64,000 nucleotides of DNA from a virus (Duplodnaviria > Heunggongvirae > Uroviricota > Caudoviricetes). Where the stretch lies: the IMG/VR virus record IMGVR_UViG_2524023210_000007, positions 16,429 to 80,428 of that record; one strand, written 5' to 3'. Position 1 is the first letter of the stretch. Each line of letters opens with the position of its first letter. The notes under the pieces are model-generated. The model was not told the origin of the DNA. It ran no database searches and saw only the letters and a list, made by a program, of their open reading frames with translations. Shown in pieces: positions 16,131 to 54,593 of this stretch. A program made the translations under genes and the position numbers.

Positions 16131-16139
16131 CTGAGGTCT

Positions 16140-18731: not shown

Positions 18732-18750
18732 ATGAAAGTATTGCTTTCAA
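18732..18750. promoter_or_regulatory. putative repressor operator OL-b (aTGAAAGtATTGCTTTCAA)
   Basis: degenerate copy of same palindrome, 36 bp centre-to-centre from OL-a. Confidence 0.35.
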
Positions 18751-18828
18751 AATGTTTGGCGAGGTAGGCTGAGGCCTCATCGGCGCCTTTAAGGCCCGAA
18801 TCGTCGCCCTCCAACTTTTCGGCTCGGG

Positions 18829-39261: not shown

Positions 39262-39474
39262 CCAAAGAACTGGTCCGACGCAGTCGTGACAGTGCCCAGC
39301 CGGGCGGCTGTAAGATCCGGTGCTTGGAGTATAATTTCTCCTTAAAGATCACTCGACGCGGATTGAAAAAGGTTGACTCGCTCAAGGTTCGCAGCATGTG
39401 AAGTGGACCACACTTATTTGTAGGCCACGGCAGTAAATTGATGCCCGATCCATTCCCCGGGGAGGGCTACGAAC

Positions 39475-41046: not shown

Positions 41047-41229
41047 GCATCCCGCGGTTGCGGTTGGTGCAAGATGAGCCCAACGAAGCTATTGTTGCCG
41101 TCAAAGGTCCGAGTTTGGACGGCGAATTGTTGCACCGTTGATAGGACTGCCATTTTCAGCTTGCATTCGTAGACAAATCACCTAGCGATTTTCTATTCGT
41201 GATTCGAGACAAGGATCTCGAGGCACGGA

Positions 41230-42213
41230 ATGGCAGAAGGCCAGCGCCGCAAGCGCCGATCGAAACGGACGATTCAGCGAGAGCGCCCGCAGAAGGCGGA
41301 GGCTCGAGCCGCGCGCGAGCAGCAGCGTGTCGAGAGGCGAGCCGCAGCCGCCGCGGCATGGGAAGCCGGCTATCCGGAGCGCGCGAAACGATACCAGGCT
41401 GAGCACGACCGTCGGCTAGCGCACGACCGCGCCCGCGAAGGGCAGCGGAAGCTGATGTACGCCTATCTCGAATATGCGCATGGCTACGACACGCCCGAGG
41501 CCCGCATGGTCGCCGCATATGTTCGGCACAACGAGACCGTTGCGAAGGACAAGCGCCGGAATCTTCTGAAGGGCGGAGATCCGCTGGGACTGCTTGAGCC
41601 CAAGGTCAAGAAGACCAGGAAGCAGGTCAAAGAAGAGAAGCGGCAGCAGGAGGCTGCGCGGCTGGCGCGGGGCGAGCGCTTCGAGCGGATCGCGGATCTC
41701 GATAACCCGGACCAAAATGTCATCGTCACGACCAAGGCGCATTCTTTGCGCCGGAAGTCGCTCGTCCGAACGCACCACCTGCCGGGGGTGGAAGCCTTCC
41801 TGCGCGACATCGAGGCGGTCCAGGGCGGCATCCGTGCTGCCAGCCTGGGAGACAAGATCGACCGCTCCGGCGTGCCGAACATCATTCCGGGCGCGATCCC
41901 GGCGGCACAGCGCATCGAGATCTGCGAGACCAGGCTCGGTCAGATCCATTGGTACTGGGCCTGCGGCTACCTGCTGTTCGACATGACGCCGACCGAGGTG
42001 CACCGCCGCGGCGGCAGCCAGCACACCACGGCAAGCGCGAAGGTCGGCGATGCGCTCGACGCGCTGTGCGATTTCTACGACCCCAATTTCCTACGTCAGA
42101 ACCGGGATCTCAACATCCTGATGGATGTCGTGAGCCGCGGCATGGAGGTGATCTTGCAAGGTGAGCGTCTTCTCAACTGGCCGCATCAGCAGAAGAAACA
42201 CACGGCACGCTGA
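41230..42213 (+). CDS. hypothetical protein (basic N-terminus)
   Basis: track ORF. Confidence 0.45.
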   Translation: MAEGQRRKRRSKRTIQRERPQKAEARAAREQQRVERRAAAAAAWEAGYPERAKRYQAEHDRRLAHDRAREGQRKLMYAYLEYAHGYDTPEARMVAAYVRHNETVAKDKRRNLLKGGDPLGLLEPKVKKTRKQVKEEKRQQEAARLARGERFERIADLDNPDQNVIVTTKAHSLRRKSLVRTHHLPGVEAFLRDIEAVQGGIRAASLGDKIDRSGVPNIIPGAIPAAQRIEICETRLGQIHWYWACGYLLFDMTPTEVHRRGGSQHTTASAKVGDALDALCDFYDPNFLRQNRDLNILMDVVSRGMEVILQGERLLNWPHQQKKHTAR

Positions 42214-42398
42214 TGTCACTCGGCAGGTTCGCTCCAAATAGTCGGGAGACGCCGCTCGAGACCAAGGCGCGGGTCTGGCGGGAATACGGTCTGCTCTTGG
42301 TTGACGTCGACAAGGATCAGTTGACCTGGGACCAGCGCGAGATGCTCAGGGCGATTGGGCGCCGCATGTTTGGTCCAAGGCGAGGGGAACGACAATGA
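42213..42398 (+). CDS. hypothetical protein (61 aa)
   Basis: ATGA-type overlap with preceding stop. Confidence 0.35.
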   Translation: MSLGRFAPNSRETPLETKARVWREYGLLLVDVDKDQLTWDQREMLRAIGRRMFGPRRGERQ

Positions 42399-42676
42399 AG
42401 CGGAGTGCGAAGGTCTTGTTGTTGGCGCCGTTGTTGTCTGGCTGCGGTGATCGACCAGCGGCCGGCCCCCCATACGCCTCGGCTACGGAATGTCGCGCGC
42501 AGACGAAACAGGAATGCCAGGCTGCGCCAAATCCGGCCGGTCATGGCGGAGTCGTATTCGTTCCGAACACCTATGCTCCTGTGGTCGCCTCTCGCAATCC
42601 GATGCTCGTGGCGCGGGCGACGCGCGGCGGCTTTGGTTTTTCGGCCAGAGCTATGTCCGTCGGGGCTGCATCGTGA
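42395..42676 (+). CDS. small lipoprotein
   Basis: lipobox LLLAPLLSGC. Confidence 0.45.
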   Translation: MKRSAKVLLLAPLLSGCGDRPAAGPPYASATECRAQTKQECQAAPNPAGHGGVVFVPNTYAPVVASRNPMLVARATRGGFGFSARAMSVGAAS

Positions 42677-43023
42677 AGCGGGCCCGTATTCCCACCCTCG
42701 GCTCCAGGATCGCTACCCTCGACACCCGGAAGGCCAAGCCGCTGCCGAAGAAGGCAGATCCTCACTATCAGAGCGCCGAGCACGAGAATTGGGCACGGCA
42801 GGTCAAGCAGCGCGCCGGTTGGCGGTGCGAACATGTCGACGAGCGCACTGGCCGGCGGTGTGAGCGTAGCAAGGCGAATGGTGACCAGATCTACGCCGAC
42901 CACATCGAAACCATCCGTGATCGCCCAGATCTCGCGCTTGATCTGAACAATGGGCGCGCAGCATGCAATTCGCACAACACCCGAGCAGGCATTCAGGCTC
43001 GAGCCCGGCGCATGAAATCGTAG
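42673..43023 (+). CDS. HNH endonuclease (terminase-associated type)
   Basis: GTG start overlapping stop (GTGA); CEHVDERTGRRC...ADHIETI...NGRAACNSHN. Confidence 0.65.
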   Translation: MKRARIPTLGSRIATLDTRKAKPLPKKADPHYQSAEHENWARQVKQRAGWRCEHVDERTGRRCERSKANGDQIYADHIETIRDRPDLALDLNNGRAACNSHNTRAGIQARARRMKS

Positions 43024-43032
43024 GAGGGGAGA

Positions 43033-43224
43033 ATGTCGAGTTGGCCGCCAGCGCCACCGGACCGAGACGCCTTTGGCGTGGCCGAACTCGGGCGGGTGCG
43101 ATTCAAACAAGGACTGCTCGGGATACGGGCCGAGCGGCTGTGCGAGCGCGCGGATGGATCGCGATTTTGGCGGCGGCTCCGGATCGGGGAAATCATCGAA
43201 ACCGCATTGGAGGATACATCATGA
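43033..43224 (+). CDS. hypothetical protein (63 aa)
   Basis: strong GGAGGGGAG RBS. Confidence 0.45.
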   Translation: MSSWPPAPPDRDAFGVAELGRVRFKQGLLGIRAERLCERADGSRFWRRLRIGEIIETALEDTS

Positions 43225-43433
43225 AGGAACCATCACCTCGCGCCGACCAGCTTAGGGCCTTGCGAGAAGCCAGATACGCGCGCAATCAGGCCCTGAAAAG
43301 CGAGCTCGACGCGCGGGATGCTGCGGCCGCGGCGAAGGAAGCGCCGCCGGCGCCGACAGCAAAGCGACCGCCGGCGAAGAAACGGCGCGCCAAGAAAGGA
43401 AGGCGCAGCCGGGGGAAGGACAATCGGTCGTAG
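43221..43433 (+). CDS. small basic protein (70 aa)
   Basis: GGAGGA RBS; ATGA overlap with previous gene. Confidence 0.4.
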   Translation: MKEPSPRADQLRALREARYARNQALKSELDARDAAAAAKEAPPAPTAKRPPAKKRRAKKGRRSRGKDNRS

Positions 43434-43435
43434 CG

Positions 43436-43771
43436 TCAGTCCTCGACGTCGGCATCAGCCGGCATCTGCCTCAGCTTCTGGTAGGGGAATTCGCCGAGTT
43501 CGGGATGGAGTCGGTCCGCCTGGATCATTGCCGCGGCGGCCATGCGCGCGGTCCCGAGCGCATTCGGGACCGTCAGGAGCGTCAGTGCGATCGGCACCCA
43601 GGTCGGAATATCCTGGACCTGGCCATCCTTCTCGCGGCCCCATCGGTTCACAGTTACCAGGTTCTGGCAGAACACGCGCGCGAAGGACTTCCGGGTCAGG
43701 CCCTGCCGTGCCAACTCGGTATCGAAATCTGCGCCCGAGATCTTGCGGTGAATAAATCGAGGTGGGGCCAT
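43436..43771 (-). CDS. HTH (XRE-like) regulator
   Basis: LTRKSFARVFCQNLVTVNRWGREKDGQ; GGAAAGGA RBS; first gene of leftward island. Confidence 0.5.
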   Translation of the reverse strand: MAPPRFIHRKISGADFDTELARQGLTRKSFARVFCQNLVTVNRWGREKDGQVQDIPTWVPIALTLLTVPNALGTARMAAAAMIQADRLHPELGEFPYQKLRQMPADADVED

Positions 43772-43804
43772 CTGAGGATCCTTTCCAATTGGGCACGGTT
43801 GCCC

Positions 43805-43857
43805 GGAATCGGCCGTAGCCGAGGGGTTAGCACAAAATCGATCGTAGCCGGGAGTCC
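43805..43857 (-). repeat. boundary repeat family 1, two direct copies (sense CYCCCGGCTACGRYCGATTTY)
   Basis: immediately 3' of the stop at 43865 and 5' of the RBS of gene 43436..43771. Confidence 0.6.
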
Positions 43858-43864
43858 CCGTCGG

Positions 43865-44239
43865 CTAGCTGAAGTCCAGCGGGGATACCAGGTGCCTGCC
43901 GACCGTCATCACCGGCGGGATGACGCCGCCGCGCTCGATCGCCGCCAGCCATTCCTTTTCGGTTCCGGTAAAGCCAGGTCCCGCCTCGACGTGATGGTCG
44001 GCCAGCCATTTGGCGAGCTCGCAAGTCGAAGCGCAGGGCGGCGATACCGGTGTCCCGGCGCTGGTGGTCTCGTACATCTGCCAGTGCGTCCGCTCCATCG
44101 CCGGCCACGCCGGCATATAGCTGGCGGCAGGATAAGGCGCGGGCGCATCCGGGAGGGCCTCGGCCAGCGGGATATAGCGGCCGGCGGAGTTGCGCGGGTG
44201 CTTCCAGTCGGCGGGCACGCGCCTAACGGTTCTGCTCAT
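43865..44239 (-). CDS. hypothetical protein
   Basis: internal ATG (MSRTVRRVPADWKHPR). Confidence 0.4.
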   Translation of the reverse strand: MSRTVRRVPADWKHPRNSAGRYIPLAEALPDAPAPYPAASYMPAWPAMERTHWQMYETTSAGTPVSPPCASTCELAKWLADHHVEAGPGFTGTEKEWLAAIERGGVIPPVMTVGRHLVSPLDFS

Positions 44240-44805
44240 GACGCCATTCCCTGACGCGCGAAGGGCCAAAGCCATTGGTCGATCCACGCGATAGTGGTTC
44301 GGTTGGCTTTGGTGGTGCGGCGCTGGTGGAGGCTGACCAGCCAGTGATATCCGTCCGCGAGGTCATCGGCGTGCTGCCCTTCGCCAAGTCCGATTAGGAC
44401 GTCACCCCACGACGCAACCATTCGGCGGCCGTCGCGGTCAGGCATGCCGTAGAGATAGAGCGAGCCGCCACCGCCGATCATCGGAGCGACGATCCAGGTA
44501 TAGAACTTGCCAGAACGGATTGCCGTCTTGAGATCGACAGCGAAGTCCTCTCCCATCGCTGATAAGAGCCGATGGAAAGGCACCTTCATCTCTTCGTCAT
44601 TCGGATCGACGCCGGCGCCATGCCACTCAGCCCAGCCATGGCTTTGGAAAATGTGCCGGCACTTTGATTCGTAATGCTGCCGCTGGCGGCAAACGAGGCA
44701 GTAGACCGTGTTGCTGTCGCAGTCGTCGCAAAGCATATTGTCGCGAAACACTTCGCCCACAGTCTCGCACCACTTACAGGTCCCAAGTTTGTAGTCGGTT
44801 GGCAT
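44236..44805 (-). CDS. Cys-rich hypothetical protein
   Basis: GAAGGAGG RBS; CKWC...CDDC...CLVC N-terminus. Confidence 0.5.
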   Translation of the reverse strand: MPTDYKLGTCKWCETVGEVFRDNMLCDDCDSNTVYCLVCRQRQHYESKCRHIFQSHGWAEWHGAGVDPNDEEMKVPFHRLLSAMGEDFAVDLKTAIRSGKFYTWIVAPMIGGGGSLYLYGMPDRDGRRMVASWGDVLIGLGEGQHADDLADGYHWLVSLHQRRTTKANRTTIAWIDQWLWPFARQGMAS

Positions 44806-44817
44806 CTATATCCTCCT

Positions 44818-45264
44818 TCACCTGGTCGGATGGAAGTTCAATTCGACCGATTGCTCGTGAGCGTCGTAAAGCGCCCTGATGTTGAGCCAATCGGTGGAGC
44901 GACCGTCGTTAGGACGCAGCCCAACCATGAGTCCGCCTTCCGGCGCCGGTTCAGAGAACAGCGCGCCAGAACCGAGAACAATGATCTGGCCGATCTCCGG
45001 TGTGCGCGGCGAAACACCGCGGAAGAGATCGCCAATATGCGTGCTCTCGCGAGTCTCTTTGACGACCGCGACCAGATCGCCTCTGTGGCCATCGAAGATG
45101 CGAGCCGTCTCGCGATCGATCAGCGAAGGCGACGGGATCGTGGTGAGCGAGGTCTGGCCGTCCTGGATCAAATAGACCGTGCCGTAACGATCGCTGCGGC
45201 GCTCCGACCCGCACCAGGTCAGGGTACCGACACCCAACAGGCGATTGATGACTTGATGTTGCAT
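44818..45264 (-). CDS. hypothetical protein
   Basis: AAAGGAGG RBS. Confidence 0.5.
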   Translation of the reverse strand: MQHQVINRLLGVGTLTWCGSERRSDRYGTVYLIQDGQTSLTTIPSPSLIDRETARIFDGHRGDLVAVVKETRESTHIGDLFRGVSPRTPEIGQIIVLGSGALFSEPAPEGGLMVGLRPNDGRSTDWLNIRALYDAHEQSVELNFHPTR

Positions 45265-45284
45265 GCATTCCTCCTTTCGGTTTG

Positions 45285-45304
45285 AAAATCGATCGTATCC
45301 GGGG
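45285..45304 (-). repeat. boundary repeat family 1, single copy
   Basis: plus-strand AAAATCGATCGTATCCGGGG; starts right after the stop of gene 45306..45617 and ~17 nt before next ATG. Confidence 0.6.
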
Positions 45305-45305
45305 A

Positions 45306-45617
45306 TCAGGATTGACCGGCTGTCTCAAGAACTCGTTTCAGGTCGAAGAATTCGACCATGGCAGGCACGCCCGTGCCGTCCCATTCCCAGATGACCCCAG
45401 TGAAGATCATCCGGTTTGCATCGCTGTGCTTGGTCGAGATATACGCCTGGGCCTCCTCCAGTGTCGGATAGCCATCGGAGTGGTGACCGATCGACTTGTA
45501 GCGCTAAGCGGTCATCTCGGCATCGGCGTTGCCAGGCATCGGGTAGGCACGGAACGGAATCGGGTGAAAGCGCCCAGTGGCGGTGTTCTTCAAAATGCCG
45601 GTGGGAAAGACGTTCAT
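45306..45617 (-). pseudogene. gene interrupted by in-frame amber codon (TAG at 45504..45506); possible RNase-H1-N/caulimovirus-VI-like fold
   Basis: GAAAGGAGA RBS + ATG at 45617; 37 codons, TAG, then 66 further in-frame codons to TGA abutting the family-1 repeat. Confidence 0.4.
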
Positions 45618-45636
45618 TGCGGGTCTCCTTTCTTCT

Positions 45637-45659
45637 GAAAATTGATCGTATCCGGGAGG
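45637..45659 (-). repeat. boundary repeat family 1, single copy
   Basis: plus-strand GAAAATTGATCGTATCCGGGAGG between stop of 45661..45939 and RBS of 45306..45617. Confidence 0.6.
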
Positions 45660-45660
45660 A

Positions 45661-45939
45661 TCAGAACAGTGAGCCTTGCGCCACATCTTCTAGCGGCGCC
45701 GCCGGCGTCCGACCGAGATGCTCGACCGTTTCGCCTATGATCTGGTCGCGGTCGTCGTCGATGAGAAGCCAACCGCGATCGCCGCCGGCAGGATCGTAAA
45801 CGACGAAGTCGCCGCCCCAGCGCTTGAAGATTCGTTCAGCAACGAGGCGCATGCCGGCGGGCACGTCGGTTGTGGCCTCGAACTCGGCGCGCGTAACGAT
45901 CTTGAAGCCCGCATTGATCAGGGTCTGTTCTCCGTTCAT
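45661..45939 (-). CDS. hypothetical protein (92 aa)
   Basis: internal ATG; coupled to upstream stop. Confidence 0.4.
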   Translation of the reverse strand: MNGEQTLINAGFKIVTRAEFEATTDVPAGMRLVAERIFKRWGGDFVVYDPAGGDRGWLLIDDDRDQIIGETVEHLGRTPAAPLEDVAQGSLF

Positions 45940-45940
45940 G

Positions 45941-46498
45941 TCAATAAACCTCGGCACCGATGCAAGCCGCGACGGCCGCGCGATACTCGCCGCCCGCGCG
46001 GTCCATGCGCTGCCAGACCTCCTTGCCGCCGAGCTTGTCGGCCAGCCATGCGAAGTCGGTCACGTAGAGGATGGCGTGCAGCAAGACCCGCTCGCCCGAA
46101 CTGCAGACGCCGTCGCATTGCTTGGCGAGTTTCACGAAACGCCCTTTGTCAGGATCGTTGAACTGCACGATAGAACTTCGGAGATGCCGCCAACTCTGCG
46201 CCGACTCGAGGTATTCGAGAAGACCCATCTTCCGAAAGATGCTGCGCGCCGGCTCACTAGCCTTGAAGCGCTCGAATCTGTGAACGTTCGCGCGTGCGTG
46301 GCCGAGTTCTTCGGCGACGTCGGGCATCCTTGCCCAGGTCCGTCCCGCATTCGTGATCTCGATCATACCGGGGTCGACACGTCGAGCCATCCCGGTATTG
46401 ACGAGAACACGCTCGGGGATGCGGTCGTGATCGGTGCGCGGTCCTTTCATGAGTTCATTGAGCAGCATCTGTTCCTCAGACGTCAGTTGGGTCGACAT
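45941..46498 (-). CDS. hypothetical protein (185 aa)
   Basis: GAGGAGA RBS. Confidence 0.5.
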   Translation of the reverse strand: MSTQLTSEEQMLLNELMKGPRTDHDRIPERVLVNTGMARRVDPGMIEITNAGRTWARMPDVAEELGHARANVHRFERFKASEPARSIFRKMGLLEYLESAQSWRHLRSSIVQFNDPDKGRFVKLAKQCDGVCSSGERVLLHAILYVTDFAWLADKLGGKEVWQRMDRAGGEYRAAVAACIGAEVY

Positions 46499-46515
46499 GG
46501 GTAAATCTCCTCTTC

Positions 46516-46566
46516 AAAATCGGCCGTAGCCGAGGGGAACGGGAAATCGGTCGTAAGCGGGAGGGC
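46516..46566 (-). repeat. boundary repeat family 1, two direct copies
   Basis: between stop of 46577..48877 and RBS of 45941..46498. Confidence 0.6.
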
Positions 46567-46576
46567 GCAGCCGGGG

Positions 46577-48877
46577 CTATCCCGGCGGCCCGTCGATCAC
46601 CACCAGCGCGGTATTCACCATCGTGCCGGCAGACTTGAACGAGCCGGCGGGCAGCGGCCTATATTCGAGAGCGATCGGCTCAAGGCGCGCGCGCTGCCGC
46701 GGGCCGTCGGCGCAGATCGCGACGAGCCGGCCGCCAGGCCGCAAGAACGTGCGGGCGTGCTCAATATGCCGGATATCGTCGCCATCCTTGAATGGCGGGT
46801 TCATCAAGACGCGATCGAACTTGCCGAGCTCGTCCGTGCTGCACTTGAGGAAGTTAGCGCAGTGAATGCGCAGGCCGCTAACTGGCGCACTGGCCAGGGC
46901 CTGCACCAATTGCGGGTTGATCTCGACCGCCACCTTATCGGGCGCTGGACCAATCGCCCGGAGGAGGGCGCCGGTTCCAGCGCTCGGCTCCAGGACACGA
47001 TGATCGGGCTCGATCTCGGCGAACTCGACGACGTCAGCGGCCAGCCTCGGCGGCGTTTCGAACAATTGCGGTGCGACGACAACTTGCACGCCGCCGCCGC
47101 GCAGCACCGCCCGCATGGCCTCAAAATCAGCCGTAGGCGAGGGAGGCGGCAAATCGGCCGTATCCGGGAGAGGGTCGAGCGCGGGCGCATCCGGCAGGCT
47201 GCAATCCAACGCGCTGCGCAACTCGTCGATCTTAACCCATCTCCACCCTTTGCTGCCATTAAGGCAGGCGGTTTTCAGCTCAACAAAACCATCCTCGGTT
47301 CGAAGCACTTCGCAAGACTCGCCTTGAAAAGTGAAGCGGTCGCCTTTGGTGAAAGCGAGCGCGGCCGCATCCAGGGTCATCGCCCGCGGGACAGGGTGCG
47401 GCTCGGCCATGATCTCGCCGACCGTCGCCAGCATGTCGTCAAGATCGACCGCGGGCGGCGCGACATACACCGCCACGAATTCGGCCGGCTCCTTCGGCTC
47501 CGCGGGCCGCGCGATCTTGGGCGGGTCGACGCGCTTTGCATCCGTGATGAAAACTTGCTGTTTCTTCCAGAACTCGCCAGGCACCGGCATTTGGCGGACA
47601 CGGTGCGCGCCGTGGGTCTCGGTCTCCTTCACCTTGCCGATATACGGGAAATCAGAGAACTGCCGGCGCGCCTTCCATTCGGCTTCCGTCATCTCGCGGA
47701 ATCCCTCGCCAGGATAGTTGCAGATCGGCGGGAGCTTGGCGGCGGCCTTCGCCGCGGCGACGTTCTCCGCGCTCGGTGCCCGATAATCGCGGATGCTTTC
47801 CACGCTCCAGCGCGCTTGCTTGGAGCGCGATCCGGCCGGCGCGGTCGTCGTCATGCTGGAAACCGAACCGTTGGCGCCCCTGTTGACCTTCAGCACCGTA
47901 AGCCATTCGTCGCCGCGGCGGGTCTGCACCTGACCGCCGACCGCGAAGGCGAAGCGGTCCGCAAGCGGGTTGGCAGTCGCCTCCGTGCCGATCTGCTCGG
48001 CCAACATCGCCCGTTCATAGGCCAGCCGGTTGTCATAGTGCGCCATCCAACGGTCCCGCCGAGGCCCTGAGCGTTCCAGGCTCGGAATCGCAATGGCGGC
48101 AGCCTGCGCGGCGGTGATGACGTTCCCGTCAATCGCCGACCAAAGGCCCATCGGTCCCTCATACTGCGAGGCCGGCGGGTCGCGCGGATAGTCGGCCAGC
48201 GGAAACGACATCGACCAATAACCGCCGATGTTGGCCACGGCCAAACCGGCGGCGCGCTGCCTCCCGGGGTCCGTGATGCCGGCGACGATCTGCCAGCCCT
48301 TCAGCTGCCTTTCGGTCTCCGCCTGCTGCTTCTCCAGCTTCCGCTTGTCGGACTCAATGCCCTTGATGCGGCGATGACGCACCGCCGGCAACTCCTTATA
48401 CTTCGCATGAGCGAGGGCGCCGGCGGCTCGCGCCGTCCAATAATTCGAGGTGTCCCAGAGTTTCAGCGCCTTCCGCATGCCGTTGTCCATGCGTTCTTTG
48501 TCTTTTCGCGCGCTCTTCTCCGAGTGATGGCCGACGAGGATGGGCTGCCCAAACGCGAAGCGTTCGGCGATTTGGTCGACCGCGTCGCGGGCGCGGTTGG
48601 CTTCGGCCAAGCGCTTGTCGCTGTACTCCTCGAAGCGGTCGGCGCGCTGCTCGGCGCGATCTACAAGGCTTGTGTCCTCGTCGCCGATCTCACCGCAGAG
48701 CTCAATCAGCAAATCTTCCCGGCTTGGCGTCCAGGTCGGCGCGACGAAAAGCCCCTGTTTCGGCGCCCACTTGAAGCCGGCGGCTTTCACGCGCGCGTAT
48801 GTCTCGGGATCGAGGCGCGAGACGGAATAGAGGCGAAGGCGGTTGTCGTCAGGGCAATAAGTAGCAGTCATGGTCAT
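46577..48877 (-). CDS. large fusion protein: ~600-aa conserved N-terminal region (ICE/plasmid-type, DUF3560-like?) + C-terminal gamma-class N6-adenine MTase
   Basis: C-terminus: motif I VLEPSAGTGALL, motif IV NPPF; AAAGGAG RBS 8 nt before ATG (MTMTATY); family-1 repeat pair encoded in-frame as linker. Confidence 0.6.
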   Translation of the reverse strand: MTMTATYCPDDNRLRLYSVSRLDPETYARVKAAGFKWAPKQGLFVAPTWTPSREDLLIELCGEIGDEDTSLVDRAEQRADRFEEYSDKRLAEANRARDAVDQIAERFAFGQPILVGHHSEKSARKDKERMDNGMRKALKLWDTSNYWTARAAGALAHAKYKELPAVRHRRIKGIESDKRKLEKQQAETERQLKGWQIVAGITDPGRQRAAGLAVANIGGYWSMSFPLADYPRDPPASQYEGPMGLWSAIDGNVITAAQAAAIAIPSLERSGPRRDRWMAHYDNRLAYERAMLAEQIGTEATANPLADRFAFAVGGQVQTRRGDEWLTVLKVNRGANGSVSSMTTTAPAGSRSKQARWSVESIRDYRAPSAENVAAAKAAAKLPPICNYPGEGFREMTEAEWKARRQFSDFPYIGKVKETETHGAHRVRQMPVPGEFWKKQQVFITDAKRVDPPKIARPAEPKEPAEFVAVYVAPPAVDLDDMLATVGEIMAEPHPVPRAMTLDAAALAFTKGDRFTFQGESCEVLRTEDGFVELKTACLNGSKGWRWVKIDELRSALDCSLPDAPALDPLPDTADLPPPSPTADFEAMRAVLRGGGVQVVVAPQLFETPPRLAADVVEFAEIEPDHRVLEPSAGTGALLRAIGPAPDKVAVEINPQLVQALASAPVSGLRIHCANFLKCSTDELGKFDRVLMNPPFKDGDDIRHIEHARTFLRPGGRLVAICADGPRQRARLEPIALEYRPLPAGSFKSAGTMVNTALVVIDGPPG
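47123..47174 (-). repeat. boundary repeat family 1 pair embedded in-frame inside the fusion ORF
   Basis: encodes ...LDPLPDTADLPPPSPTADFEAMRAV... just upstream of the MTase domain; coordinates approximate. Confidence 0.5.
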
Positions 48878-48896
48878 AGTGGTTGCTCCTTTCATC

Positions 48897-48912
48897 TTGC
48901 GCACAATCGCGC
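48897..48912 (-). repeat. palindromic repeat family 2 (TTGCGCACAATCGCGC) upstream of RBS
   Basis: 12-28 nt upstream of the 46577..48877 start, directly 5' of its SD. Confidence 0.55.
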
Positions 48913-48919
48913 TTTTCGG

Positions 48920-48977
48920 GAATCAGCCGTGACCGGGAGTCGCGGCTATCAACGGGAAATCAGCCGTAGCGGAGGCC
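48920..48977 (-). repeat. boundary repeat family 1, two direct copies
   Basis: begin immediately after the TAG of micro-ORF 48978..49085. Confidence 0.6.
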
Positions 48978-49085
48978 CTAGCGCAGGGCCTCGCACTGTT
49001 CGATATGGCGGACGATCAAATAGAACGGCCGCAACTGGTGACAGTGGGGACAACGCAATTTGCGTGGTTGCGGTTTGCGCGTCAT
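48978..49085 (-). CDS. micro-ORF, 35-aa zinc-ribbon-like peptide
   Basis: MTRKPQPRKLRCPHCHQLRPFYLIVRHIEQCEALR; stop abuts a family-1 repeat as at other gene boundaries; no clear SD. Confidence 0.3.
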   Translation of the reverse strand: MTRKPQPRKLRCPHCHQLRPFYLIVRHIEQCEALR

Positions 49086-49103
49086 GGCAGCGGCACCGGA
49101 CCG

Positions 49104-49442
49104 TCAAGACGTGAGGCGCGTGCGAAGTCCCTCGCGAATTGAACGCGGCCATTCCGGAGGCCCCGCAGATACATGAATCGGTGGTGCGCGATCATGTTGA
49201 CGAGGCCGAACGGGGTGAGGGCCGTTGTAGCAATTCATCCCGCCCCATGTCGCTTCAAGGTAGATACGGCGCCGGAAGGTTCCGCATTCGATATAGATCG
49301 TTCGGCCGACGCGCGAGGGGTGGCGCCGGGCCAGGCGCATTGCTGTTGAGGCCGCGCGCCATTCCGATTGTGAGCGCGGCGCCGGCCTCGACTTCAAAGC
49401 GTCGCACATTTCCGAGAACGTCGATTCAGGTTTACGTTTCAT
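49104..49442 (-). CDS. hypothetical protein (112 aa)
   Basis: internal ATG 12 nt after stop of upstream gene; R-rich, so uncertain. Confidence 0.3.
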   Translation of the reverse strand: MKRKPESTFSEMCDALKSRPAPRSQSEWRAASTAMRLARRHPSRVGRTIYIECGTFRRRIYLEATWGGMNCYNGPHPVRPRQHDRAPPIHVSAGPPEWPRSIREGLRTRLTS

Positions 49443-49453
49443 CGGCGCCACCG

Positions 49454-50017
49454 TCAGGCCGCAAGCCGAATTGCGCAGGAAGGCGCAACCGGGACACGCG
49501 CCATAACGGGCACAAGGCAAGACGTGCGCAGGATCCTGCCCGGGATCTTGAGAGAAGGCGCAACCGGGACCGGTACCGCTTCCGGAATTATCTCCTCAAC
49601 CGGTTCGGCGGGCTGCCAATCCCAATTGGGAATCTCGATCCGCGACACGACGTCCCAATGGTGCGTTGTGCAGGCGGTGCGGCCGTAGCCGCTGGACGTG
49701 GTCCGACGCTTGCCGAATTCGACCGCACGGACACGCTTTTGCAACTTGCCATTTGGGCCGGTCACGCTGGACCAATCCACCACATACTCAAGCCCCGCCG
49801 GAATCTCGATTGCATCGCGGCGCGCCAGCCAATGCGCGTACGCGACCGCATGCCGCGCGTTCAAGTCATCGGCGGAAACGCCGCCGGTGCTGCGCGTGAC
49901 TTTCGAGCTATGCCGGACCTTGTGCCGCTTGTCGTTAGCGGAAGGCACCCAACGCTTTTCCGGAAGCGGGCCGTGAATCGTCGGATGGTCGAAAAAATCA
50001 TAGAACAGCCATGCCAT
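49454..50017 (-). CDS. hypothetical protein (187 aa) with internal VPVAPS direct repeat
   Basis: AAAGAGGAG RBS preceded by family-2 palindrome. Confidence 0.45.
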   Translation of the reverse strand: MAWLFYDFFDHPTIHGPLPEKRWVPSANDKRHKVRHSSKVTRSTGGVSADDLNARHAVAYAHWLARRDAIEIPAGLEYVVDWSSVTGPNGKLQKRVRAVEFGKRRTTSSGYGRTACTTHHWDVVSRIEIPNWDWQPAEPVEEIIPEAVPVPVAPSLKIPGRILRTSCLVPVMARVPVAPSCAIRLAA

Positions 50018-50038
50018 GCTAGATTGCTCCTCTTTCAG

Positions 50039-50055
50039 TTGCGCACAATCGCGCG
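50039..50055 (-). repeat. palindromic repeat family 2
   Basis: TTGCGCACAATCGCGCG immediately 5' of the SD of gene 49454..50017. Confidence 0.55.
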
Positions 50056-50079
50056 GTTTGAATCGTCGAAACGGTGCGG

Positions 50080-50283
50080 CTAGGCTGCCAACTCAACCGG
50101 CCGATAAGCCGTGCACCAATGCGGCCCGACGATGTAACCGCAGTGCACGGCGCTACCGTCCGGCTTGTCGCGGTACATTTTCGCGACCCGTCCGCCGCCG
50201 ATCTTGCTACGCAGCTCCGCAATGGTGCTGGCGCCCCAGCGGTTGCCGAATTGGTCTACGTAGAGAGTCCAAATTCCGCGCAT
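50080..50283 (-). CDS. small hypothetical protein (67 aa)
   Basis: AAAGGA RBS after family-2 palindrome; MRGIWTLYVDQFGNRWG... Confidence 0.45.
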   Translation of the reverse strand: MRGIWTLYVDQFGNRWGASTIAELRSKIGGGRVAKMYRDKPDGSAVHCGYIVGPHWCTAYRPVELAA

Positions 50284-50300
50284 GTCAGTATCCTTTCGAG

Positions 50301-50317
50301 TTGCGCACAATCGCGCG
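50301..50317 (-). repeat. palindromic repeat family 2
   Basis: TTGCGCACAATCGCGCG 5' of the SD of gene 50080..50283. Confidence 0.55.
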
Positions 50318-50374
50318 TTGGCCCGCTTTGGCGTTCCGTGCTGCGCTGGGCCAGGCCAGCGCAGTATCGCAACG

Positions 50375-50827
50375 TCAAGACATGGGAAGGCGGGAAATGT
50401 CGCGGAGTTGCGAGGCCGCGCATTCCGCTGCATCGCGAGTTGTGCAGTCTGTGATTGCTTGCGCCTCGCCGGAATGATGGCGAGCGTAAATCGTCCAGAA
50501 TTCGGCTTCACTGTTGGACTTCCCGCCGATGGTGAACGTGTCGCCATTTTCTTCCGTCTCGGTGACGCATCCGCCGATTTCCAGCGACTTGAATTGCGAC
50601 CAATCGGGCGCAATCTGGCCAGAGCAGCAATTGTAAAGAAACGAATTCGGCCGCGCCAAATAGATGCCGGCGGCGCCCTGCCATGTTGTCTCGCCGTTAT
50701 CCCATTTGACTTGAAGCGGTCCGTTCGCATTGTCGCGGACATCGACAACGATTCCCAAATCGCGGTCATCGGTGCCATTCGTGACGCGTGCGCCTATCGG
50801 CGGAAGGTGGGAGTTCTGCAGGTCCAT
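50375..50827 (-). CDS. hypothetical protein (150 aa), N/D/T-rich
   Basis: track ORF; GGGGA SD-like; natural composition. Confidence 0.5.
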   Translation of the reverse strand: MDLQNSHLPPIGARVTNGTDDRDLGIVVDVRDNANGPLQVKWDNGETTWQGAAGIYLARPNSFLYNCCSGQIAPDWSQFKSLEIGGCVTETEENGDTFTIGGKSNSEAEFWTIYARHHSGEAQAITDCTTRDAAECAASQLRDISRLPMS

Positions 50828-50932
50828 TTAGCGTCCCCTATGGGATGAATAGAATCCGGATCATGAGCAGCGCAAGGCCAGCGTCACTAACGATGTAGAG
50901 AAGGCGTGCCAGCCTTGCGAGGTGATAGGCCT

Positions 50933-51037
50933 TCACAGGCACGAATTCAGAAACGCGCGCTTACCGTGGCTCAATGCGGCGCGGCGAGTCCGCTTATCAA
51001 TCGGCTTGCGGTCGGAATCGTGGCGACGATACTTCAT
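50933..51037 (-). CDS. micro-ORF, 34-aa basic peptide
   Basis: AAAGGGAAA RBS after family-2 palindrome; MKYRRHDSDRKPIDKRTRRAALSHGKRAFLNSCL. Confidence 0.35.
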   Translation of the reverse strand: MKYRRHDSDRKPIDKRTRRAALSHGKRAFLNSCL

Positions 51038-51056
51038 AGCGGTTTCCCTTTCATGG

Positions 51057-51071
51057 TTGCGCAATTGCGCG
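51057..51071 (-). repeat. palindromic repeat family 2 (perfect GCGCAATTGCGC core)
   Basis: 5' of the SD of micro-ORF 50933..51037. Confidence 0.55.
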
Positions 51072-51125
51072 GTTCGGCGGTTGCCGATCATGCCCGGGAC
51101 AAGCCCGGGCATGGGCTGCAATCGC

Positions 51126-52004
51126 TTAGGCCGCGAGCGGAGCGGCGCCCTTGAGCTCCGCCATTTTCGCCGCGAGAGTGAAAAGAGCGCGGTTCAGTTT
51201 CACGTCTTGATCGATACCATTGACGGCGCGCGTGGTGACGCGGCGAGGGCGATTGTTAGCGTCACGGCCGCGCGCTGTGAGTCCGCCGCGAATGACGTTT
51301 TCCTGAACGACGTTAAACGTGGTCCAAAGGTCCGACGCGGTGTCATCACGGCGCCGCGGGCGGAGCAGTTGCGCGGGCTGAATCGGCGTATTGGTTTCGC
51401 CTTCCGCGTCGCCAAACCGCAGAACGTGCGCGGACTCCGCCAGCACTTGCTTTTCGTCGCTGTTGAGGGCCAGGCGCGCCCAGTCCTGCGGCGCCGCAAG
51501 CGCCTTCTGTGCTTCGCCCAAAACCCGATACGTGCCCTCGATCACCTTGTGCGAAACGTCCTGCGCGGTGCCGGTATGGCGGACCTTCACGGAATCGATG
51601 GTGCCGACTTGTGCCACAAGGCTGTTGAGGCAACGGACGCGGAAAAGTCCCGCGATCAGGTCATAGGCTGACGTTCCGTCATTCGCGTTCTTGAGGAGGA
51701 TTTCGCAGACGGTGTCACCGACGCTATACGCCGCGGCGTTGTCGAGACGGCGGAGACGGATAAGATGCTTCGTGAAGTCGCGGCGATCATCGATCCGCGC
51801 GACGCTCTGCTTTGCGCCGACAGGCTGGAAGCCCTCCGCCATCAGCGCGCGCAGCACGTCGAAAGTCGGGATTGGCTGAAAACGGTCAGAACGCGAGTGG
51901 TGCGCGTCAACCGCGAAAACGGACGGCGCCAGCTTGCGCAATTCGGTTTCGGTCAGGGCGCGGGCGGAGTCATCGAAGCGGGCGGTTGAGGTGTAGACGG
52001 TCAT
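51126..52004 (-). CDS. conserved phage/plasmid-associated protein (DUF932-like?)
   Basis: track ORF (292 aa); AAAAGGAAG RBS after family-2 palindrome; family assignment from memory only. Confidence 0.5.
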   Translation of the reverse strand: MTVYTSTARFDDSARALTETELRKLAPSVFAVDAHHSRSDRFQPIPTFDVLRALMAEGFQPVGAKQSVARIDDRRDFTKHLIRLRRLDNAAAYSVGDTVCEILLKNANDGTSAYDLIAGLFRVRCLNSLVAQVGTIDSVKVRHTGTAQDVSHKVIEGTYRVLGEAQKALAAPQDWARLALNSDEKQVLAESAHVLRFGDAEGETNTPIQPAQLLRPRRRDDTASDLWTTFNVVQENVIRGGLTARGRDANNRPRRVTTRAVNGIDQDVKLNRALFTLAAKMAELKGAAPLAA

Positions 52005-52023
52005 TGCAGATACTTCCTTTTCA

Positions 52024-52041
52024 GGTGCGCACTATTGCGCG
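52024..52041 (-). repeat. palindromic repeat family 2
   Basis: GGTGCGCACTATTGCGCG 5' of the SD of gene 51126..52004. Confidence 0.55.
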
Positions 52042-52095
52042 GTTTCGGCGATTTGCCGGTTATGCCGTGGCGTGCACGGCATAGGCTGCAAATCG

Positions 52096-52167
52096 TCAGA
52101 TACAGCACGCCACGATGACGAATGTGCCGACGCTGGCGAAGAGGAGAAAAAGCAAAAAGTCTTTCAT
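52096..52167 (-). CDS. micro-ORF, 23-aa hydrophobic peptide
   Basis: MKDFLLFLLFASVGTFVIVACCI; AAAGGTAAG SD after family-2 palindrome; coordinates approximate. Confidence 0.3.
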   Translation of the reverse strand: MKDFLLFLLFASVGTFVIVACCI

Positions 52168-52182
52168 GATCTTACCTTTCGA

Positions 52183-52200
52183 ATTGCGCACTATTGCGCG
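52183..52200 (-). repeat. palindromic repeat family 2
   Basis: ATTGCGCACTATTGCGCG 5' of micro-ORF 52096..52167. Confidence 0.5.
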
Positions 52201-52209
52201 GGTCGAAGC

Positions 52210-52377
52210 TTAGCGGCGGGAACGGCGCGCGCGGTGGCGGATCGCCCGGCGGCGCCGCGGTAGCGGTTCACTGTACTCGAAAACAAAAAGGACGATTAGG
52301 CCCAACGCGGCCAGGATGAGCAGGACGAAAACCGGAAACATCGGGTTGGCGATGCAGAAGGAAATGAGAGCGTTCAT
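52210..52377 (-). CDS. small membrane protein (55 aa) with poly-Arg tail
   Basis: MNALISFCIANPMFPVFVLLILAALGLIVLFVF...RRRRAIRHRARRSRR; family-2 palindrome upstream. Confidence 0.4.
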   Translation of the reverse strand: MNALISFCIANPMFPVFVLLILAALGLIVLFVFEYSEPLPRRRRAIRHRARRSRR

Positions 52378-52395
52378 TTCGCCGGGCCTTTGGAG

Positions 52396-52411
52396 TTGCG
52401 CACAATCGCGC
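52396..52411 (-). repeat. palindromic repeat family 2
   Basis: TTGCGCACAATCGCGC 5' of gene 52210..52377. Confidence 0.55.
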
Positions 52412-52451
52412 TTGAGAGAGTGGCGCGGCCGATTGACCGCGCCGGTAGTCC

Positions 52452-52631
52452 TTACTTGATTCCGAAAATCCAGAACGGGTTGGTTTCCGTCTGGGCGGGT
52501 TGCAGAGCGGCCGGCTTGCTCTTCTGTTCCTCCTCGATGTTGCGGCAGAGCATTTCGAGATAGCCGATGGTGCCAAGGCCTTGAGTGAAGTCGGGGCAGG
52601 GCGGAAGGTCTTTGGTCTTGATGACGGCCAT
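52452..52631 (-). CDS. small hypothetical protein (59 aa)
   Basis: AAAAAGGGAAAA RBS after family-2 palindrome; MAVIKTKDLPPCPDFTQGLGTIGYLEMLCRNIEEEQ... Confidence 0.45.
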   Translation of the reverse strand: MAVIKTKDLPPCPDFTQGLGTIGYLEMLCRNIEEEQKSKPAALQPAQTETNPFWIFGIK

Positions 52632-52651
52632 AGTCGTTTTCCCTTTTTCGG

Positions 52652-52668
52652 TTGCGCACAATTGCGCG
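52652..52668 (-). repeat. palindromic repeat family 2
   Basis: TTGCGCACAATTGCGCG 5' of gene 52452..52631. Confidence 0.55.
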
Positions 52669-52765
52669 TTCAGTGAAAGCACCATACAGGACCGGCCGGC
52701 CGTGTCAACAGGCAAAACGCAAAAAAGTGACGTTCGGCCGAAAAAAGTTAGTTCGGCGTCACAGA

Positions 52766-53086
52766 TCAGGGATGCAGCGCGCGGTACTGCGCCAGCAATT
52801 TGCCTGCCCGCTCAATGAATTGCCAGCTGTCGCCGGCCGAGATGCCGAGCTCCACCGCCCTGCAGCGCAGCGCGACGTCAGGGCCGGCGCCCATGGCGCG
52901 GTAGATCGCTATCGAGTTCGGCGAGGCGAAAATGGCGCGCGCCGCGGCGTTATTGGACAGGCCTAGCCGGTCCTGCCAGGCCACGAAGTCGGCCGCGCTG
53001 ATTCGCAGTGACGCGTCACCAGATGCAAAATCGCGCTTTTGCGGCGCTCGGACGTCGGCCGACTTTGTCGCGCTTTTCCTCGCCAT
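52766..53086 (-). CDS. putative HTH DNA-binding protein (first gene of leftward island)
   Basis: LGLSNNAAARAIFASPNSIAIYRAM HTH-like; track ORF. Confidence 0.4.
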   Translation of the reverse strand: MARKSATKSADVRAPQKRDFASGDASLRISAADFVAWQDRLGLSNNAAARAIFASPNSIAIYRAMGAGPDVALRCRAVELGISAGDSWQFIERAGKLLAQYRALHP

Positions 53087-54083
53087 GCCATCTCACTCCG
53101 TAGTGACGTTTCCGGGTTAACCCACACTAGGCGGACCTATCACAGATTTGAGTCGCAGCAACCCGGCGGAGCGCGCCTATCAACGGGCAAGCGCCGCCGC
53201 GTCGGTTTGACAGCCGACTCATTTTCCGATTCAGAGCGGGAACAGTGAAGGATTGTCACCACGGGCAACCCGCCAGGCCGAAAGGTCTCGGCGGGTTTCG
53301 CATGTCAACGGTGCACCATGGCCAACCCGACCAATGCAGCTGCGCCGATTGCTGGAACGTGGCGCCCAACCGGCAACGCGCGGTTGCGGTGCGGTTGGTT
53401 CGGCCGGCCGATAATCGAGATTGAGGAGTCCGCCACGGTGCTGACTGGCGATCCTGCGCCAGGCCAAGCCATCGGGACATGGCGAGTAGCGAAGCGTTGG
53501 CGCCGCGCTCGGCGCGGCCAAGTCGTGGCGCTCGGTACCGTTGCAGCCATGGTCGCCTTTGCCCGTGGCAAGGCGGAGCGGTAGCGCCCATGGGTGACGT
53601 CGTCGCGTTCGCTGTCCCTGCCGGCGGCGCCGCCGCGCGTGCAGTCCCTGCCAGCGATGAATCCGCAACCGTTGTTATCTTGCCCGTCATCCGCCTAGAG
53701 CGCTGCAGCCCCGACCCATGGGACGGGTTGCCGAGCGATAGCGCTCCGCCGCATGCGGCCACGTTCCCGGATGACGGCGCGTAGTCCGCCACGTCAACTG
53801 GTCACCACCTAACGCACACGCCAGCCAGGTAACGCCAGCACGTTGCGGCGGGGCGGCGCCGGGTGCCATGGGCGCCGCCGGACATGGTCGGGCAACCCGA
53901 CCCGCGACGCTCGCAACAGCCAAGCCGGGCCAGCCAACCGCCAACCCGCCCCCCGTCGGCGGACCTCGAGCAAGGGGGGCAGGGGGGGGCAAATTCCCGA
54001 AAGACGGCAGGACCCGGGACCGCTTGGGGTCGCATCCGCACAATTTTTTTGAGGCGGCCGAAATTTTTGGCCGAGATCGCAAA

Positions 54084-54593
54084 ATGACCGAAAAACCGGC
54101 AGAGCCGAAAAAGCGGAAGACGCGGAAGCGAGCAACGCGGAAACGGAATGCCGGCGGGCGGCCATCCTGGAAGCCGACCCTCGACGATCGGACCACGATC
54201 GAGCGGATGAAGTTCTGCGGCGAGTCCGACGCCACGATTGCGCGGTCGCTTGGTGTCGACGTCGACACGATGCGGAAACATTGCCCGGAAGAACTCGCGA
54301 ACGGGTACGCGAACCGCCGGCGCGAGGTGGTCAACCTGCTCTTCGAGGCGGCGAAAGCCAAGAACACCTCGGCGATCAAGCGGCTCGACGACATGGGGCG
54401 GGTTGCCGGTGCGGCCGCAGCGGTAAACGGTCGCGGCGGGAAAATGCCGAAGCCGGAGAAAGCGCCGGTCGCCGAAAAGCCTGGCAAAAAGGAACTGCGG
54501 AAACAGGCGGCTGCCCAGGTAAGCGGGGTCTACGCGCCGCCGCCGCCGCCGAGGCTGGCTGTCGATAACACCAAGGCCGCGGGCGGCGAGTGA
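54084..54593 (+). CDS. terminase small subunit (HTH-containing)
   Basis: position immediately 5' of terL; DDRTTIERMKFCGESDATIARSLGVDVDTMRKH HTH; basic N-terminus. Confidence 0.5.
   Translation: MTEKPAEPKKRKTRKRATRKRNAGGRPSWKPTLDDRTTIERMKFCGESDATIARSLGVDVDTMRKHCPEELANGYANRRREVVNLLFEAAKAKNTSAIKRLDDMGRVAGAAAAVNGRGGKMPKPEKAPVAEKPGKKELRKQAAAQVSGVYAPPPPPRLAVDNTKAAGGE

Follow-up and report, generated by a model that had tools for sequence, protein, structure and literature searches.

What kind of element can separate an HNH endonuclease gene from the terminase genes, and which function might it fulfil at this site? This question is raised by a block of leftward genes at positions 43436–53086 (minus strand) of a 64,000-nt stretch of viral DNA (IMG/VR record IMGVR_UViG_2524023210_000007, positions 16,429–80,428; Caudoviricetes), which is called the window in the following. 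The window has a G+C content of approximately 62% and reads as one large temperate-phage region, in which a plus-strand early arm is followed by the minus-strand block and then by terS, terL, portal and head genes. An earlier note on this DNA had suspected that the block is a mobile anti-defence island or a satellite-like element that invaded the packaging-proximal end of the phage. From the comparisons described below, the block reads as a resident accessory operon or phage module and not as an independent mobile element. Regarding its function, we give an even chance to the reading that it is an immediate-early establishment or anti-restriction operon, which is analogous and partly homologous to the leading region of conjugative plasmids. 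The phage itself is predicted to be of the temperate cos-type and to reside as a prophage in a Bradyrhizobium-like host. The nearest public proteins are from Bradyrhizobium, e.g., the DUF932 protein of the block and a protein of Bradyrhizobium sp. Leo170 are 95% identical, and the helix-turn-helix (HTH) protein encoded at 52766–53086 shares 98% identity with a protein of B. cenepequi. Moreover, a Logan contig (L164; run SRR896542; 59,440 bp) is 100% identical to window positions 41126–53853, and megablast of the block sequence found no match among 50,697 phage records.

The block starts behind the HNH gene (42673–43023, plus strand), which is of the terminase-associated type, as judged from a weak Pfam HNH match (E = 0.0095) and from its place among the approximately 100 HNH proteins of a jackhmmer family, which are encoded next to related terL genes. 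On its other side terS and terL follow (54024–56335, plus strand; the ATG at 54085 is the most likely start of terS, terL starts at 54590), which were assigned by the Pfam families TerL_ATPase and TerL_nuclease and by the syntenic portal and head genes. An iterative HNH search covering about 100 loci showed that in approximately 90 loci with a related terL the HNH gene is encoded on the same strand and ends 250–2200 nt upstream of terL, so that the supposed normal adjacency of HNH and terS holds for this terminase family. A distance of 11.3–13.4 kb was observed only in the lineage of the window (11.6 kb in the window itself; L141, L081, L082 and L085 among its relatives). As adjacency is the rule in these 90 loci, the block is read as a derived interruption of an ancestral HNH–terS layout. 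None of 38 genomic terL relatives, which served as a block-less comparison set, has a block gene upstream; they derive from a scan of one genome per species, in which the best match reached 60% identity and no close relative was present. Both the viral and the genomic scans were seeded with peptides and sampled the databases without exhausting them. HK97-type HNH–terminase cos modules contain the same components, i.e., HNH, terS, a TerL of the PF03354/PF20441 type, portal and head genes, and a cos-proximal motif upstream of terS. All of them are present here, but the HNH gene is located 11 kb from cos/terS instead of immediately upstream of it.

Fifteen confident minus-strand genes were found within 43436–53086 by codon-usage gene calls and by independent calls on the identical Logan contig. 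In addition, the micro open reading frames (ORFs) seen earlier were recovered, as about six of them are each backed by their own stem-loop, ribosome-binding site (RBS) and ATG. Apart from the methyltransferase protein and the DUF932 protein (292 aa), all block genes encode proteins of at most 190 aa. The description of HNH and terS as separated by minus-strand genes needs the amendment that four small plus-strand ORFs also intervene, two behind the HNH gene (43033–43224 and 43221–43433) and two in front of terS (53318–53584 and 53590–53784).

Five IMG/VR prophages (L141, L081, L082, L083 and L085) carry HNH, block, terS and terL with the same anchor genes in the same order and with the same promoter region, while the cassettes inside the block are swapped among them. 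As an example, the DNA of L141 is 82–87% identical on both sides of the block and in its conserved parts, and the genes between its anchors differ from those of the window. An identity of 72–82% is seen in L081 and L082 from 42212 to approximately 52400, i.e., over HNH plus block as one tract, and their terminase has diverged (55% identical), as has the portal protein (approximately 30%). As this shared tract spans the HNH gene together with the block, the distribution points to phage mosaicism and not to a site-specific insertion between HNH and terS. In four further loci (L127, L110, L111 and L155) the block lies just left of HNH and not between HNH and cos. The synteny comparison that had been suggested for this site supports the broken HNH–terS adjacency in the window lineage, but not the island, since the five relatives share block position and anchors.

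Two genes of the block could be assigned to known families and are referred to as anchors. The first (51126–52004, minus strand) encodes the protein of 292 aa for which a DUF932 relationship had been tentatively proposed; this is borne out by PF06067 (4.2e-34; 118.7 bits against a cut-off of 23; profile positions 1–226 of 227) and by phrog_12094 (1.6e-102). The structure of DUF932 gave no functional lead, and in the literature consulted DUF932 and DUF3560 are mentioned in passing only, with no report found on the function of DUF932 or on the present arrangement. As a separate observation, in the viral contig L117 (12047–18600) DUF932 is directly followed by homologues of the leftward recombination genes of the window (12137–16130, minus strand), namely an AAA_23 ATPase, a DUF3799 nuclease and a 487-aa protein, suggesting that in other phages DUF932 can head a recombination operon.

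The second anchor (46577–48877, minus strand) encodes a protein of 766 aa, supported by Pfam and PHROG, which contains DUF3560 (PF12083; 5.9e-33; residues 71–188; 114 bits against a cut-off of 27.2) and a C-terminal class-I S-adenosylmethionine (SAM)-dependent methyltransferase domain (PF05175, MTS; 24.6 bits against a cut-off of 23). Motif I, VLEPSAGTG, and motif IV, NPPF, were read in the sequence, and Pfam and PADLOC searches gave no restriction enzyme partner. The large protein with a C-terminal orphan methyltransferase, as it had been described, is thus upheld in the form of DUF3560 joined to a predicted orphan N6-adenine-type methyltransferase. PADLOC matched only the methyltransferase domain of the whole block, the best match being the MADS methyltransferase mad2 (9e-17). 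An assignment to the characterized single-strand-specific M.BceJIII/M.EcoGIX type was rejected, as the domain is unrelated to M.BceJIII. Two copies of a repeat that is described below as family B (47125–47167, minus strand) lie in frame in the linker between DUF3560 and the methyltransferase domain, and in several enterobacterial plasmids DUF3560 and methyltransferase are annotated as separate genes; together this points to a fusion of two genes that were once independent.

Both anchors connect the block to conjugative plasmids. The DUF3560–methyltransferase protein matches at least 5000 plasmid records in PLSDB, 3880 of which are conjugative, and the best plasmid matches (51–56% identity) belong to MOBF/MPF_F plasmids of Betaproteobacteria. 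There, ssb is followed by DUF932, two small genes, a gap, DUF3560/methyltransferase, kleA, further genes and radC, and then by the coupling protein and the relaxase, so that the order of DUF932, small genes and DUF3560–methyltransferase is shared by the block and the MOBF/MPF_F leading regions. DUF932 followed by DUF3560 plus methyltransferase is also found in Denitratisoma pI and in Alicycliphilus pALIDE201. In pBCJ2315, a DUF932 protein that is 43% identical to the one of the window heads a run that lies upstream of the type IV coupling protein and MobF genes and includes a methyltransferase of the M.BceJIII type as well as a ParB-family protein, and the methyltransferase behind DUF932 is unrelated to that of the window. 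The IncF plasmid pK204_KPC encodes the DUF3560–methyltransferase homologue alone with no DUF932 annotated; the IncF homologue is located between antirestriction/DUF1380 genes and ssb-psiB-psiA. It was reported that leading regions carry orphan methyltransferases, anti-defence islands and many small genes of unknown function in one orientation (PMC11541004; PMC7736820) and that they are adapted to fast translation (PMC13478746). The block resembles them in its homologous anchors in the same order, in the uniform orientation of its genes, in the presence of an orphan methyltransferase, in the many small genes of unknown function and in its predicted place on the first-entering DNA.

There are also clear differences from leading regions. 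The block is carried by a tailed phage and lacks oriT, relaxase and type IV secretion system (T4SS); it is flanked by HNH, terS, terL, portal, DnaB and recombination genes, and none of the proteins scanned matched a relaxase or T4SS family. The phage DNA is expected to enter double-stranded, so that a normal sigma-70 promoter takes the place of the Frpo single-stranded DNA promoters, and transcription runs away from the DNA end, whereas that of leading regions runs toward oriT. Moreover, ssb, psiB, ardA, klcA, kleA and radC are missing from the block, its methyltransferase is not related to M.BceJIII, and its small genes are unrelated to plasmid genes. The small genes next to the anchors were considered as counterparts of KleA and the two small plasmid ORFs, and no match was obtained. 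The proposed affinity to ICEs (integrative and conjugative elements) or plasmids is thus retained for the two anchors, which are colinear with MOBF leading regions, but not for the small genes.

Next to gene content, the position of the block relative to the end of the packaged DNA bears on its function. The window has a single copy of a cos-proximal motif, CGCATCCGCACAATTTTTTT (54031–54050, plus strand), located 54 nt ahead of the ATG of terS. The corresponding motif, C-N-C-A-Y-N-N-G-N-A-C-A-A followed by an A/T run, forms the exact start of at least 11 independent metagenomic contigs with a terL of this family, which is why 54031 is predicted to be the left end, or a cos-proximal element, of the packaged DNA, with the block as the extreme right end. 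The motif is kept in all five relatives and lies between the HNH gene and terS in the cultured Burkholderia phage vB_PR2a. The vB_PR2a gene preceding it (L205 7304–7642; record positions 43303–43641) is annotated as 'holin'; it carries a C-terminal HNH-like …CKPHH… sequence and occupies the HNH position, so this label is probably a mis-annotation. In the window, the distance from the predicted DNA end is approximately 0.95 kb to the start of the HTH gene and approximately 1.3 kb to the main promoter.

A location close to DNA ends is found for other DUF932 genes as well. Among 79 other viral DUF932 loci, 20 have a contig end at most 2 kb upstream of the gene and 3 have one at most 2 kb downstream of it (binomial p = 0.0005; some of the contigs ending near DUF932 are related to one another), and contigs that are merely 76–88% identical start at homologous positions near DUF932. 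For 40 DUF932 loci with a large divergent ORF upstream, this ORF encodes a large terminase in 16, representing four Pfam types, and a portal or capsid protein in most of the others. In jumbo phages of approximately 350 kb DUF932 lies 10–23 kb from the start of the record on the inward strand, and in Pectobacterium phage CBB (L203) the DUF932 gene CBB_45 is located inside the annotated terminal redundant repeat of 22,456 bp (1–22456). Within this repeat CBB_45 is found among dozens of small inward-facing genes of unknown function.

In phages such as lambda, SPP1 and T7, packaging begins at the terminase-proximal site and the DNA packaged last leaves the capsid first. If this rule is valid for the phage described here, the terminase-distal end would be packaged last and ejected first, and the block would be the first DNA in the cell. 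Host RNA polymerase could then transcribe it at once and inward from its strong sigma-70 promoter, and the block might supply establishment or anti-restriction functions, i.e., methylation of the incoming or replicating genome by the methyltransferase, together with its cargo of unknown function. An anti-defence function is plausible, with the predicted methyltransferase as the only recognizable activity.

First-entering early regions are known from virulent phages, namely the class I genes of T7 with 0.3/Ocr and the first-step-transfer region of T5, which lies in the terminal repeat. The block resembles these regions as an inward operon at a genome end that, as we infer for the block, is read by host RNA polymerase and supplies counter-restriction functions, and it resembles T7 in its predicted polycistronic mRNA with intercistronic hairpins, which in T7 are RNase III sites. 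It differs in belonging to a temperate cos phage and in having no homology to Ocr or to T5 A1/A2, and the order of entry and the early timing are deduced by analogy in its case. Moreover, the small hairpins of the block lack the length for RNase III; of its hairpins, the two with a 22-bp stem on either side of DUF932 are the only possible sites of this kind.

The main promoter of the block, TTGACA-16-TATGGT (52681–52708, minus strand), is the sole sigma-70 match of 10/12 positions in 42.6–54.3 kb. It is preceded by an A/T-rich element, TTTTGCGTTTTGCC, and a terminator-like hairpin with a T-run separates it from the HTH gene. All six blocks share the -35 hexamer and the A/T-rich element upstream of it. 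The -10 hexamer TATGGT is conserved in four of them (window, L141, L083 and L085), and L081 and L082 carry a different, ambiguous -10 element. The HTH gene (52766–53086, minus strand) constitutes a separate unit of transcription that precedes the main promoter, and it encodes an XRE/Cro-type protein of 106 aa, for which all top Foldseek matches of the AlphaFold2 model (pLDDT 79.9) in the PDB are XRE-family HTH proteins. This protein is likely the regulator of the main promoter. HTH regulators had been proposed at both ends of the block: the proximal one agrees with the modelled fold, whereas the 111-aa HTH-like protein encoded by the last gene (43436–43771, minus strand; gene calls; conserved in L141, L081 and L082) resembles it only weakly (pairwise E = 0.008). 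Pfam gave no match for either protein.

Downstream of this promoter almost every cistron is preceded by the same arrangement, consisting of a 4–5 bp stem with a RAYWGU loop, A[AC], a short spacer, a GAAAGG/GGAG-type RBS and an ATG. These family-A stem-loops (NNNN-R-A-N-N-G-T-N'N'N'N'; 48897–52668, minus strand), each located 2–10 nt upstream of an RBS, were found at 52652–52668, 52396–52412, 52184–52200, 52025–52041, 51055–51066 (one nt shorter), 50301–50317, 50039–50055 and 48897–48913, with a distal GGGC/GCCC variant at 43791–43804 that belongs to the last block gene. When sites were chosen blind to the stem, using loop, RBS and start codon only, 44/50 were fully paired in the six blocks vs. 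2/61 in 2.3 Mb of control sequence. The stems vary between copies and lineages (GCGC/GCGC, GGGC/GCCC, GGCC/GGCC, GGTC/GACC, TGGC/GCCA and CGGC/GCCG); in the alignment 95.5% of the cells pair and four of the five pairs are changed on both sides (23 cells), resulting in a covariation score of 0.391 vs. 0.156 in shuffled alignments, with 0/500 shuffles reaching 0.391. The closing pair is G·U in 26 copies and A–U in 23, which fits an RNA of the sense strand, as G·U is tolerated there but not in the complementary strand. The hairpin is present in the minimum free energy fold of 7/8 leaders, with the RBS mostly unpaired. It also occurs with other stems in distant DUF932 loci (L094, L090, L116, L096 and L148), was absent from plasmids and from the terL-only loci examined, and Rfam 15 covariance models gave no match at E ≤ 1 in 42500–54300.

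A second repeat, family B, (C)CGGCTACGGCCGATTtt (43411–49163, minus strand), often forms tandem pairs approximately 27–37 nt apart in front of RBSs in the distal half, so that the two repeat families ascribed to the block do exist, and within the window they are confined to it. DUF932 is furthermore flanked by two homologous hairpins with a 22-bp stem and an internal loop (51077–51125 and 52049–52095, minus strand), the inner stem of which covaries among the relatives (CCGTG/CACGG, CCCGGG/CCCGGG and CCGCG/CGCGG). These hairpins may be RNA processing or attenuation sites; an interpretation as Frpo was rejected, as the -35-like and -10-like hexamers lie on opposite arms, which is not the Frpo geometry.

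The family-A stem-loops might act on the mRNA by insulating the RBS, by stabilizing the transcript or by binding a regulator, and as repeated linkers they might favor cassette exchange. Short conserved DNA islands at stem-loop linkers (48887–48970 and 50294–50376) lie between genes in which the window and L141 differ, as expected if the repeats mediate such exchange. This is reminiscent of the PeSL cassettes of T4-type phages, in which an early promoter is combined with a terminator-like stem-loop (PMC2839356; PMC4122927): both systems show a repeated stem-loop motif between small ORFans in an early hyperplastic region and breakpoints at the repeats. The block differs from PeSL cassettes in having one operon promoter instead of one per cassette, in the stem-loop position before the RBS and in sequence and phage group.

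Several points weigh against the reading of the block as an immediate-early establishment operon. Only two of its approximately 20 genes are common to plasmids, the small genes are not, and searches with Pfam and NCBIfam revealed no SSB, Psi, Ard or KlcA protein in the block; a Frpo-type element was not found either, as judged from Rfam models and hairpin geometry. Besides the methyltransferase, no protein matched a known defence or anti-defence family in Pfam, PHROG, NCBIfam or PADLOC, and expression from the prophage would also be compatible with a strong constitutive promoter. The enrichment of contig ends near DUF932 could partly be caused by coverage drop-outs or assembly breaks in G-rich sequence. 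The end of the identical Logan contig at 53853 may reflect a nearby physical DNA end or a coverage drop-out; as this position is approximately 180 nt left of the cos motif in a G/C-rich stretch, it is counted as weak evidence. Virion ends, packaging direction and expression timing are taken from sequence and analogy. Finally, the folding energy of the small hairpin is inconspicuous (z-scores near 0), so that the case for it rests on covariation.

A first alternative is that the block is an ordinary early accessory region of the nin/ORFan type with incidental proximity to cos, and that DUF932 and DUF3560 act in DNA metabolism, i.e., in the start-up of replication or recombination, and not in counter-defence. 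The block is indeed located at the junction of the early-right and late operons, a common place for accessory genes, it does not differ from the early genes in codon usage, most of its proteins are of unknown function, and ssb and radC are neighbors of DUF932 in plasmids. However, this explanation, which we regard as somewhat improbable, accounts neither for the position of DUF932 beside contig ends and packaging genes of four terminase types and in a jumbo terminal repeat nor for the inward orientation opposite to all neighboring genes.

It is unlikely that the block is a lysogenic-conversion or defence hotspot expressed from the prophage, which would serve superinfection exclusion or host methylation like the cos-adjacent cargo loci of P2-like phages. 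A strong sigma-70 promoter that needs no phage activator, the variable cassette-like cargo, the small membrane peptides and the best PADLOC match of the methyltransferase to MADS mad2 are in agreement with such a role, and according to a preprint, a DUF932 gene on an integrated plasmid came under strong selection following a challenge with phage (10.1101/2025.06.20.660599). On the other hand, PADLOC matched the methyltransferase domain alone with no nuclease or effector partner, the adjacent XRE-type regulator suggests a controlled and not a constitutive promoter, and the leading regions in which the plasmid homologues are situated also carry ssb, psiB, ardA or klcA-type genes, whose functions benefit the element as it enters.

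Finally, the autonomous element was evaluated. No integrase, recombinase, relaxase, replication/primase or capsid-redirection gene was detected in the block by Pfam, PHROG, NCBIfam and PADLOC, and no credible direct repeats flank it, as only GC-rich matches at chance level and the internal repeat families were obtained. An integrative element (ICE, integrative and mobilizable element or genomic island) was rejected for the missing recombinase family and att repeats, and a phage satellite (P4-like, PICI or PLE) because neither integrase nor replication/primase nor capsid or packaging redirection genes were detected. The proposed contrast in composition did not appear: the GC content (0.619), GC3 (0.749) and codon usage of the block match the phage early genes, and its tetranucleotide distance is approximately 1.6 sd above the window mean with the peak over the repeat-rich, non-coding right part, which amounts to no convincing signature of foreign origin. 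An island, ICE fragment or satellite that invaded between HNH and terS and moves by its own recombination or hijack functions could explain why a near-universal adjacency is broken by a block with plasmid-type anchors, own repeat families and uniform opposite orientation, but it is very improbable in view of these results, of the five relatives with the same position and flanks, of the L081/L082 tract that includes HNH, and of a left boundary that is a tight convergent junction with stops at 43433 (ORF 43221–43433, plus strand) and 43436.

Returning to the reading as an immediate-early establishment operon, a tentative and somewhat improbable generalization would be that DUF932-led blocks mark the first-entering DNA across plasmid leading regions, the right end of temperate cos phages of four or more terminase types and jumbo-phage terminal repeats, that in the phage versions the stem-loop coordinates rapid expression and drives cassette shuffling, and that the cassettes form a reservoir of anti-defence genes. 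If the establishment reading is true, temperate phages of soil alphaproteobacteria share a strategy and part of the genes with conjugative plasmids for their first minutes in the host. It would further provide a positional rule for finding new anti-defence genes, i.e., an inward-facing DUF932 block beside cos, and a first functional context for the widespread DUF932 and DUF3560, as well as a compact, covariation-supported cis-regulatory RNA element that can be tested in reporter constructs. The stem-loop was previously undescribed, and plasmid leading regions, the T7/T5 early regions and PeSL cassettes are the closest known systems.

The remaining parts of the block, all on the minus strand, are mostly small genes. 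Three promoter-proximal genes, each with stem-loop and RBS, encode 59 aa (52452–52631), 55 aa (52210–52377; membrane-like) and 23 aa (52096–52167; hydrophobic). Behind DUF932 a basic micro-ORF of 34 aa (50933–51037) was read from the sequence with a palindrome variant and an RBS ahead of it, and its start MKYRRH is conserved in L141, L081 and L082. The proximal cargo cassettes comprise 50375–50827, 50080–50283, 49454–50017, a possible 116-aa ORF (49104–49452) and a 35-aa CxxC micro-ORF (48978–49085); Pfam gave no match for them, and unrelated genes take their place in L141, L083 and L085. Likewise, Pfam gave no match for ten cargo proteins of the relatives. Downstream of the methyltransferase gene two genes (45941–46498 and 45661–45939) are kept in the relatives and match no family; the 185-aa product of the former is essentially without plasmid homologues and not KleA-like. 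They are followed by a gene of 103 codons (45306–45617) that is interrupted by an amber codon at 45504–45506, as had been noticed. Uninterrupted homologues of 85–118 aa carry a conserved Gln at this position, which argues for a recent pseudogene formed by nonsense mutation. Three further cargo genes with no assigned function (44818–45264, 44236–44805, which encodes a Cys-rich protein, and 43865–44218) differ in presence and absence among L141, L081 and L082 and have no matches in Pfam, PHROG, NCBIfam or PADLOC.

Outside the block, the minus-strand early and recombination genes (1–18814) include an RNase_T exonuclease, a DUF3799 PDDEXK nuclease, an AAA_23 ATPase and a radical-SAM protein, and the plus-strand early and replication arm (18829–43023) includes an N6_N4 methyltransferase, a DnaB-like helicase, which was named by sequence reading with no profile scan behind the label, and the HNH gene. 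Among the leftward genes a 570-aa protein (2020–3732, minus strand) shows a weak match to a protein-kinase domain (E = 3.9e-4, under the cut-off). A tRNA-Met (CAT) gene (17958–18034, minus strand) is located between the leftward and rightward early arms in phage-like DNA and could be phage-encoded or the remnant of an old attachment site. The stretch with the lowest GC content of the window (39000–41050; 0.559 vs. approximately 0.62) coincides with an ORF of 426–523 aa (39475/39766–41046, plus strand), the product of which has a hydrophobic C-terminus and no Pfam match; judged by composition, this ORF is a better candidate than the block for a recently acquired moron. Finally, a second DNA methyltransferase gene (N6_N4_Mtase, 2.4e-38; 36557–37837, plus strand) is part of the early-right operon, and the radical-SAM protein gene is located at 9835–10674 (minus strand) in the leftward arm, so that the phage may encode several DNA-modification functions besides the methyltransferase of the block.

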